From a virus (Duplodnaviria > Heunggongvirae > Uroviricota > Caudoviricetes), in IMG/VR virus record IMGVR_UViG_2740892272_000004: DNA of 43,535 bases, one strand, 5' to 3'. The translations under genes were made by a program, and so were the position numbers. Under the pieces are notes generated by a model. That model saw nothing but the letters and a program-made list of their open reading frames with translations. It ran no database searches and was not told the DNA's origin. Shown in pieces: positions 4,379 to 5,335 of the stretch (positions are counted from its first letter, which is position 1; each line of letters opens with the position of its first letter).

Positions 4379-5311
4379 TCATTCACTCTCTTTCAAACCA
4401 GTTTTAACTGTTTGTGGTTTTGGGTAAGGCTGGACTTTGAATAGCTTTGTGTTAAGGCGTTTTCTGGCTCTCTTGTCCAGAAACCGGATGTAACGAAACT
4501 GACGGAATTTATGAACACTGGCTCTGTCGATATTAGCCCGCAGATGTTCACCTCGCTGTCCTCCTCGTTTGATTGCATTCTTGCAAATCTCGTGATACCA
4601 CTCGCCATCAAGTTCATAGAATGTTGTTTCATGACTGCCTACATAATCAAAATTGCTTGCCTGGTACACGACACCAAGACAGCCACAACGCTCATCTGCA
4701 AACGACTGAACCCACTGCACCTGCGGATAAAGTTGTCTGATTAGTTTGAGCGCGTAACTGATTGCCCTTGATTCGGAGTTTCTCGGCATACAGTCATGCA
4801 GCCATAACCGGTTAAGCTCCATATATTCGCGGTTCTGCGTGCCAGTTACGACGCGTGCACCATTGTTTGGATTAAGGGCATAACCCCATTGCATTACGCC
4901 AACCAGCTCCCGTTCTGAAAATATGCCCAGATGAAGGTAGGAATTATTTACGAAACGATGGCTGTAATGTTTATTGACGACGACCAGCCGGGCCAGCCAG
5001 CAACTTATTGTCTCAACCCGTAACTCACGGGAGCCATAACCGACGATATTGTCGTTATAGTGAATAAGTTCAGGCGTGCTGATGATACGGGATGTAACTT
5101 GCTTTCTGTTCCCCACGACAGGATTTCCTTGTGTATGTGGGGTGCTCTGTGGCGCTCTGAGATGTGATTTGATTGAGGGTTTTACAGCGCGGACATTTAA
5201 CTTCCAGATAACTGAAGCTGGCTCGTGCCAGTAGCTTGTTACAATGTCGGCACCGTATGTTTCGATACATGGCCGCATAACCTCCTGCTTTGTTGTTGAT
5301 ATCTTTATCAC
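4379..5311 (-). CDS. mom: Mom-like DNA modification protein; ORF extent shown, true start uncertain and probably near the com stop (about 5075)
   Basis: Long ORF overlapping and following the Com zinc-finger gene at the prophage right end, the Mu mom position; about 230 codons lie downstream of the com stop, matching Mu Mom size. Not verified by sequence recall. Confidence 0.6.
5070..5270 (-). CDS. com: Com-like zinc-finger translational activator of mom
   Basis: Translation [34 protein letters not shown]... has the CxxC...CxxC zinc finger and resembles Mu Com (RCKNCNKLL...RCPRCK). A GGAGG Shine-Dalgarno lies about 10 nt upstream of ATG 5270. Confidence 0.8.
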
Positions 5312-5315
5312 TCAA

Positions 5316-5335
5316 TCGATCGACAAAAACGATCG
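5316..5335. promoter_or_regulatory. Two CGATCG (Dam GATC) sites 14 bp apart upstream of com/mom, candidate methylation-sensitive regulatory region
   Basis: Sequence caatCGATCGacaaaaaCGATCGattt lies directly upstream of the com ORF. In Mu, clustered GATC sites upstream of Pmom mediate Dam/OxyR control. Confidence 0.4.

Follow-up and report, generated by a model that had tools for sequence, protein, structure and literature searches.

A com-mom operon of the phage Mu type, with a putative Dam-sensitive OxyR site upstream, very probably at the right end of a Mu-like prophage

In phage Mu, the DNA modification made by Mom brings resistance to many restriction enzymes. Two overlapping open reading frames at one end of a Mu-like prophage raise three questions: whether they are the com-mom operon, whether the double control of this operon is kept, and whether the element that carries it is still functional. 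The window, that is, the whole stretch of DNA analyzed here, is the virus record IMGVR_UViG_2740892272_000004 of IMG/VR, with a length of 43,535 nucleotides. The element and its two genes of interest are located as follows.

42883 (approximate) down to 4371, minus strand: prophage
5270..5070, minus strand: com, 66 aa; Pfam PF10122 (Zn_ribbon_Com); RefSeq WP_014334043.1
5116..4379, minus strand: mom, 245 aa, GTG start; Pfam PF25680; RefSeq WP_000528246.1

Very probably, a Mu-like transposable prophage is present here, and the region is the com-mom operon of its right end. The gene set of the window is Mu-like (transposase, B-type ATPase, Mor/C-family activator at 33311..32889, gin-like invertase), and com, mom and the operator features all lie on the minus strand. 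The presence of a com-mom module at the position of Mu mom had been proposed from the letters alone in an earlier note, and was borne out by the Pfam matches of Com and Mom and by their identity to the Mu proteins. Phage Mu, which is also transposable, carries com followed by mom at its right end (NC_000929, 35768-36602). Unlike in Mu, gin is not found directly upstream of com, as a block of 3.4 kb with DUF6645/SASA, DUF1378 and DUF826 genes and a divergent small ORF lies in between. Among 5426 complete E. coli genomes, 18 contain identical copies of the com-mom segment (window positions 5560-4371), with differing insertion sites. In one of these 18 genomes, the PGAP annotation of the whole prophage includes a transposase, an AAA ATPase, Gam and a Mor/C-family activator, as well as lysis, head and tail genes and a gin-like recombinase. 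The module is thus already in the databases, with identical copies annotated in RefSeq. It is an ordinary com-mom operon of the phage Mu type, in which both ORFs are intact, and its description has small weight beyond correct annotation: the prophage can now be labeled as having a gene for anti-restriction hypermodification of DNA, controlled by the classical double lock. Also, a search of the window for tRNA genes with ARAGORN found none, while PGAP marks a "tRNA-OTHER" in a relative. The sole match of an Rfam scan of positions 4000-6000 was a sub-threshold hit to IS102, which was dismissed as chance.

The upstream gene had been described as a Com-type zinc-finger gene of about 66 aa, and this description holds: the 66-aa product of the ORF at 5270..5070 matched Pfam PF10122 with an E-value of 7.5e-13 and 48.2 bits (cutoff 22.9). 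It is 45% identical to Mu Com, and the cysteines of its CxxC...CxxC arrangement align with Cys6, 9, 26 and 29 of Mu Com, which are the zinc-ligand cysteines of that protein (PMC3299994). The coordinates of WP_014334043.1 match those of com in the identical E. coli copies. Homology thus shows Com to be a small zinc-ribbon RNA-binding protein, predicted to switch on the translation of mom. The gene is preceded by a Shine-Dalgarno sequence which is kept in all close alleles.

5286..5281, minus strand: AGGAGG, Shine-Dalgarno sequence of com, 10 nt upstream of its ATG (5270)

The product of mom matched Pfam PF25680 with an E-value of 1.6e-77 and 260.2 bits (cutoff 27.1), over positions 1-202 of the 202 positions of the profile. 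It shares 75% identity with Mu Mom, compared to which it has 12 additional C-terminal residues, and it aligns without gaps to the solved structure of Mu Mom (PDB 8bv8, E 2.4e-123). The HTH-like insertion (about residues 175-209) is also matched, the alignment to Mu Mom being ungapped over that region. The residues reported as important in Mu Mom, i.e., R111, S124, R151, D149, H58, Y59, Y159, W48 and W181 (PMC13219725), are all identical in the window protein. According to Silva et al. (2026), Mu Mom moves glycine from Gly-tRNA(Gly) to the N6 of adenine in double-stranded DNA, where it then rearranges to give carbamoylmethyl-adenine (PMC13219725). The name given to WP_000528246.1 by RefSeq/PGAP, "tRNA(Gly)-dependent adenine aminoacyltransferase Mom", follows the same activity. 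By homology, the window protein is shown to be a Mom-family GNAT enzyme, for which tRNA(Gly)-dependent modification of adenine N6 is predicted. An NCBIfam scan of Com and Mom gave no family match, though PGAP names both proteins.

The mom frame, which is not that of com, is open from 5311 to 4379 in the ORF listing, which corresponds to 310 codons. It had been noted that no stop interrupts this frame over about 80 codons ahead of the com stop, and that the two genes would consequently share an unusually long overlap. The open stretch is present. The long overlap is not retained, as the mom start annotated in the identical RefSeq copies is the GTG at 5116, with which the two genes overlap by 47 nt, against 50 nt in Mu (homologous GTG, L001 1408). 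Could the 310-codon ORF nevertheless be real, and give a Mom isoform from ATG 5279 or GTG 5311 that overlaps all of com and escapes the control by Com? The frame is indeed open from 5311, an ATG at 5279 directly follows the AGGAGG, and in a simulated synonymous recoding of com the mom frame remained open in a mere 6.5% of trials. However, the Pfam Mom homology does not begin before residue 96 of this ORF, and ATG 5279 is only 2 nt from the AGGAGG. Moreover, a TAA closes the mom frame 27 codons upstream of the GTG in 19 of the 31 loci with the same operator, through a GTT-to-GTA change which is synonymous in com. In Mu, the homologous GUG is the start of Mom, and the ORF is open only to an ATG located 10 codons farther upstream; the 10 residues thus added in the annotated Mu ORF can be removed without harm (PMC13219725), and the GUG start of Mom was placed in the stem of the translation-inhibition structure (PMC6483171). 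A long isoform is therefore highly improbable. As the upstream open frame is not conserved, and in view of the simulation, we consider the long overlap an accident of this allele. Translation of mom almost certainly starts at GTG 5116, inside a conserved hairpin, as in Mu. Starts of mom at 5311 or 5279, as well as a start of com at TTG 5315, were rejected on the basis of conservation and Shine-Dalgarno spacing.

Two predicted RNA elements are located at this start and just 5' of it.

5142..5111, minus strand: translation-inhibition hairpin CCCCAC (5142-5137)...GUGGGG (5116-5111), from the ViennaRNA MFE fold
5155..5144, minus strand: predicted Com-binding hairpin GC[GCCACAGA]GC, with the CC-N3-GAG motif at 5152-5145

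The GUG start of mom (5116-5114) is located in the stem of the first hairpin, and its Shine-Dalgarno sequence AAGGA (5130-5126) in the loop. The sequence thus reads GCCACAGAGC at 5153-5144, followed by CCCCAC...GUGGGG at 5142-5111. Mu likewise has its GUG start in a CCCAC...GUGGG hairpin preceded by a CC-N3-GAG Com hairpin, with GCCUGCGAGC at the position of the latter. The motif recognized by Mu Com was defined by SELEX and EMSA as 5'-CC(N)2-3GAG-3', in the loop of a hairpin next to the translation-inhibition structure (PMC6483171). The z-scores of the folds are weak (-1 to -1.8), and the argument for the hairpins therefore rests on conservation. For this purpose, 72 distinct Com loci of IMG/VR were available, found with peptides from the window Com and hence biased towards relatives. 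The CCCCAC...GTGGGG hairpin was present in 65 of these 72 loci, and all 65 carried CC(N2-3)GAGC ahead of it. These data indicate that the cognate mRNA target of Com, a CC-N3-GAG hairpin 5' of the start hairpin, is present, and binding of Com to it is predicted. By analogy with Mu, such binding would open the start hairpin, so that mom would be translated only after com has been made.

The second lock would be situated upstream of com, where two palindromes are found.

5317-5322 and 5330-5335: paired CGATCG palindromes, with GATC at 5318-5321 and 5331-5334

Two such palindromes, each with a Dam GATC site, had been reported immediately upstream of com and 14 bp apart. Both are present and upstream; the spacing has to be corrected to 13 bp from start to start (7 bp between), and "immediately" is loose wording, since 51 nt separate the start of the proximal GATC from the com ATG. 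The pair is not due to chance, since CGATCG is depleted in the window (4 occurrences against 13.2 expected), since GATC-N9-GATC occurs there a single time, and since the pair is intact in 27 of 27 IMG/VR contigs that were recruited by an independent com-start pattern without use of the pair itself. GATC as such is found 124 times in the window, against 171 expected. In these 27 contigs, the adjacent 15-21 bp downstream of the pair were the most variable part. A third GATC at 5400 was considered as part of the operator, and was rejected as it is not conserved in other alleles.

The match to the Dam/OxyR logic of Mu, also suggested earlier, is upheld by the alignment of the pair with Mu GATC sites 2 and 3, at the same 13-bp spacing, which is also that of P22 gtr. 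The Dam/OxyR sites of Mu were defined genetically (PMC3378877). The Mu upstream region contains three GATC, two of them in a CGATCG context as here, with spacings of 18 and 13 bp; the region upstream of com in the window has two, and Mu site 1 is absent from it. Upstream of com or mom in Symbiopectobacterium, Pantoea, Scandinavium and other loci, GATC sites again stand 18 and/or 13 bp apart. The distance between the proximal GATC and the com ATG differs, with 51 nt in the window, 78 in Mu and 83 in Symbiopectobacterium, so that the operator is about 27 bp closer to com than in Mu. The OxyR half-sites of P22 gtr were defined by experiment; there, a GATC pair with 13-bp spacing falls inside a single dimer half-site, and its methylation blocks OxyR binding (PMC2909390). 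The same holds for the geometry of the OxyR/Dam switch of E. coli agn43, and that of the window appears similar. Compared with gtr and agn43, the operon found here would have one GATC-bearing half-site only, plus the Com gate at translation. The following sites were delimited in this region.

5333..5319: putative Dam-sensitive OxyR dimer half-site, ATCGTTTTTGTCGAT, matching 7 of 10 positions of ATAGnTnnnAnCTAT
5319..5355, minus strand: strongest candidate for a complete tetramer site of OxyR, with half-sites 7 bp apart and 13 of 20 positions matched
5341..5364: AT-rich dyad ATTTGTT-N10-AA(T/C)AAAT, just upstream of the GATC pair, in the conserved operator block

Written as ATCGnTnnnGnCGAT, the pair agrees with 7 of the 10 specified positions of the OxyR dimer consensus. 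The sister cassettes, with ATCGATAAAAACGAT or ATCGTTTTTATCGAT, reach 8 of 10 matches to ATAGnTnnnAnCTAT by hand count, and the two positions at which they deviate are precisely those that give rise to the GATCs. The tetramer candidate has the same score of 13/20 as Mu 1157-1193, which spans the three GATC sites; this score was reached at three loci of the window only, and is not significant, as shuffled sequences give similar counts. The AT-rich dyad is kept across allele groups with unrelated sequence farther upstream, and its ATCAATTAAAT core is common to Mu. It is a candidate which may represent a second OxyR half-site or an activator site. From the homology to the mapped Mu operator and from the half-site geometry, we infer that the GATC pair (5334-5318) is a Dam-sensitive OxyR dimer site. 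The predicted control by Dam and OxyR is well supported by both homology and geometry: OxyR bound to unmethylated or hemimethylated DNA would keep the operon off, and full Dam methylation would release the operon from OxyR.

It is also conceivable, but quite unlikely, that the CGATCG pair has nothing to do with OxyR and Dam, and is instead a structural hairpin or terminator, or else is bound by a phage regulator that recognizes the 9-bp inverted repeat AATCGATCG-N7-CGATCGATT. This inverted repeat is perfect, but any two identical palindromes give one automatically. Similarly, a terminator-like flag was obtained on the plus strand, but no plus-strand gene ends at the pair; the "terminator" at 5314-5338 was discarded as being merely the two palindromes. 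An RNA hairpin z-score of -2.75 and the non-significant OxyR consensus score would also agree with such a structure or regulator site. Nevertheless, the pair aligns with sites of Mu whose role in Dam/OxyR control is genetically established, and the 7-bp spacer varies in the sisters (tttttgt, ataaaaa, tttttat) while the GATCs stay constant, as do T6 and A10 of the OxyR half-site, which fits a protein half-site and not an RNA stem-loop. Furthermore, the cassette is also found in at least one phage, Chuche, which has an integrase in place of Mu-type transposition genes and in which a Mu-type activator is therefore not expected. A Dam-sensitive OxyR site thus remains the preferred reading of the pair.

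A sigma-70 scan detected no minus-strand promoter upstream of com. The sister cassettes have a good -10 hexamer, either TATCAT, in many cases preceded by TG, or TATACT. It begins 7 nt past the proximal GATC, which places the half-site over the -35/spacer region. The window allele has at this position only a poor TGaTAAAGA. Most likely, then, the OxyR half-site overlaps the -35/spacer of the core promoter, and does not lie upstream of an activator site. In P22 gtr, one pair starts at -110/-97 and the other, promoter-proximal pair at -46/-33, where it overlaps the -35 region (PMC2909390).

Late transcription was considered from a box found elsewhere in the prophage.

32884-32869: late-promoter box CCGCAAANCCNGCCCC, upstream of lysis (Plys)
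24697-24682: late-promoter box CCGCAAANCCNGCCCC, upstream of the protease (P_I)

No match to the box CCGCAAANCCNGCCCC was found near or upstream of com. Either of two causes may lie behind this absence: independence from C, or a C site that has diverged like that of Mu. Variation is seen even among the C sites of Mu itself, and the C homologue of the prophage is 40% identical to Mu C. The alignment of the upstream regions also leaves a gap of about 32 bp in the window relative to Mu, and the missing stretch is what we take to be the C-activator binding site and the -35 region of Mu.

The note had also suggested that the prophage can modify its DNA against host restriction. The module is intact, but its use is uncertain in this copy, because the right end of the element is lost.

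4370..4371: deletion junction 8 bp beyond the stop codon of mom, with 4371 as the last prophage base and 4370 as the first base from inside an IS66-family transposase gene

Identity to the 18 E. coli genomes stops at 4371, and the IS66 fragment starts at position 212 of the 284 positions of the Pfam profile. Intact relatives run about 125 bp farther, with three GGTATCAAA repeats, which correspond in inverted orientation to the ATTTGATACC repeats, also three in number, of the left end (42711-42867). The right-end repeat was sought in the window and was not found; all three right-end transposase-binding repeats have thus been lost with these ~125 bp. At the other side, the left end (~42883) adjoins the IS66 orfB; its terminal base is approximate, given the differences between the IS66 copy found here and the reference copy. 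Relative to an intact IS66, about 1.25 kb of IS66 is missing together with the phage right end, which is consistent with one deletion. As the transposase-binding sites of the right end are lost, the element is probably unable to transpose, and the prophage is probably defective and not a viable phage. Protection of phage DNA may consequently never occur.

Taken further, the locus could be a silent relic, in which the deleted right end and the degenerate -10 mean that com-mom is never usefully expressed in this strain. We regard this as doubtful, while giving it real weight. The loss of the repeats at a junction inside IS66, the lack of a recognizable promoter in the sigma-70 scan and a -10 weaker than in the sister cassettes all speak for it, as does the silence, in their hosts, of Com-controlled methyltransferases of the FluMu type (PMC3299994). 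On the other hand, both ORFs are intact and 100% identical to the copies at different insertion sites in the 18 complete E. coli genomes, which indicates a recent deletion with no visible decay. Such silence concerns activity, and is compatible with the identity of the two genes as com and mom.

Among the 72 Com loci, a sample biased towards relatives as stated above, the 13-bp GATC pair was present in 62, and the proximal GATC lay 50-53 nt from the com ATG in 60 of these 62. The genes carried behind com were Mom in 24 loci, a N6_N4-MTase (PF01555) in 33, a C5-MTase (PF00145) in 9 and a D12-MTase in 3, and were unidentified in the remaining 3. The Mom, N6_N4-MTase and C5-MTase payloads begin at the same GTGGGGAAC (VGN...), and the unit made of operator, com and hairpin is fused at these first codons to Mom, PF00145 or PF01555 in the IMG/VR relatives. 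These observations suggest, very tentatively, a compact and portable two-lock cassette, with the order OxyR/Dam half-site over the core promoter (50-53 nt from the com ATG), com, Com-binding hairpin and start-codon hairpin. It would be joined, near codon 4 (VGN...), to one of three unrelated DNA-modifying enzymes (Mom, a C5-MTase or a N6_N4-MTase), in both Mu-like and non-Mu-like phages. Without a C site, mom would be independent of the late activator, gated by methylation and Com, and possibly phase-variable. We hold this full reading to be rather improbable, somewhat more so than the silence of the locus discussed above. If it were true, phase variation from the prophage would be possible, as for gtr and agn43. 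The 13-bp GATC pair, found at a fixed distance from com in dozens of phage contigs whose modification enzymes are interchangeable, offers a simple signature for Com-gated, probably toxic, DNA-modifying genes. It also suggests that the C-dependent promoter of Mu may be an exception among such promoters.

The association of com with other modification genes has precedents. Methyltransferases which replace mom behind com are known from FluMu, Pnme1, Hia5 and phage B3 (PMC3299994). In these elements (FluMu hin1523, Pnme1 nma1821, Hia5, B3 ORF47/48), a homologue of com precedes a DNA-modification gene at the mom position, as in the window (PMC3299994); their payload is a methyltransferase, whereas that of the window is Mom.

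The operator (the CGATCG/GATC pair upstream of com), com itself and the hairpin enclosing the mom start codon are common to the window and to sibling phages (LC727881, locus L004, 1565-2816; loci L083-L093 and L094-L128). In the siblings, the place of mom is taken by a methyltransferase gene of the C5 cytosine (PF00145) or N6_N4 (PF01555) class, with the same GTGGGGAAC start. This substitution points to an exchange of cassettes immediately past the first codons.

Upstream of com, a block of 3.4 kb (5560-8659) separates this gene from the invertase gene, whereas Mu has nothing at this position. 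The features concerned here and below are as follows.

8745-9317: gin-like invertase
3.4-kb block upstream of com: 684-aa SASA-esterase/DUF6645 protein
3.4-kb block upstream of com: DUF1378 and DUF826 genes
24682-24697, minus strand: CCGCAAANCCNGCCCC box upstream of the head protease gene
32869-32884, minus strand: CCGCAAANCCNGCCCC box upstream of the lysis genes
301-2016, plus strand: 571-aa ORF combining a T3SS LRR domain with a novel E3 ubiquitin ligase (NEL) domain
2196-3942, minus strand: tail-fibre genes with the PF08400 N-terminal domain of prophage tail fibres

The block also carries a divergently oriented 86-aa ORF, for which no family was matched.

The two listed CCGCAAANCCNGCCCC boxes are identical, and less perfect copies were observed at 33366-33381 and 37975-37990. 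This box is likely a binding site for the Mor/C-type late activator of the prophage.

In the near-identical prophage L003, PGAP annotated a "tRNA-OTHER" (21517-21596, about 25344-25423 in the window) in the gap separating the virion morphogenesis gene from the minor head protein gene; ARAGORN found no tRNA across the entire window.

An IS66-family element houses the Mu-like prophage, which runs from about 42883 to 4371 and has its left end (42860-42900) next to orfB of that element. The right end of this probably defective prophage is missing: about 125 bp including three GGTATCAAA transposase-binding repeats (junction 4370-4371; compare L003 400-560) were deleted, and the IS66 transposase gene lost about 1.25 kb together with them. 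The tail-fibre genes, immediately past the IS66 fragment, belong to the remnant of another prophage. Finally, the 571-aa ORF is an IpaH/SspH-type effector, which suggests Shigella or enteroinvasive E. coli as the host.
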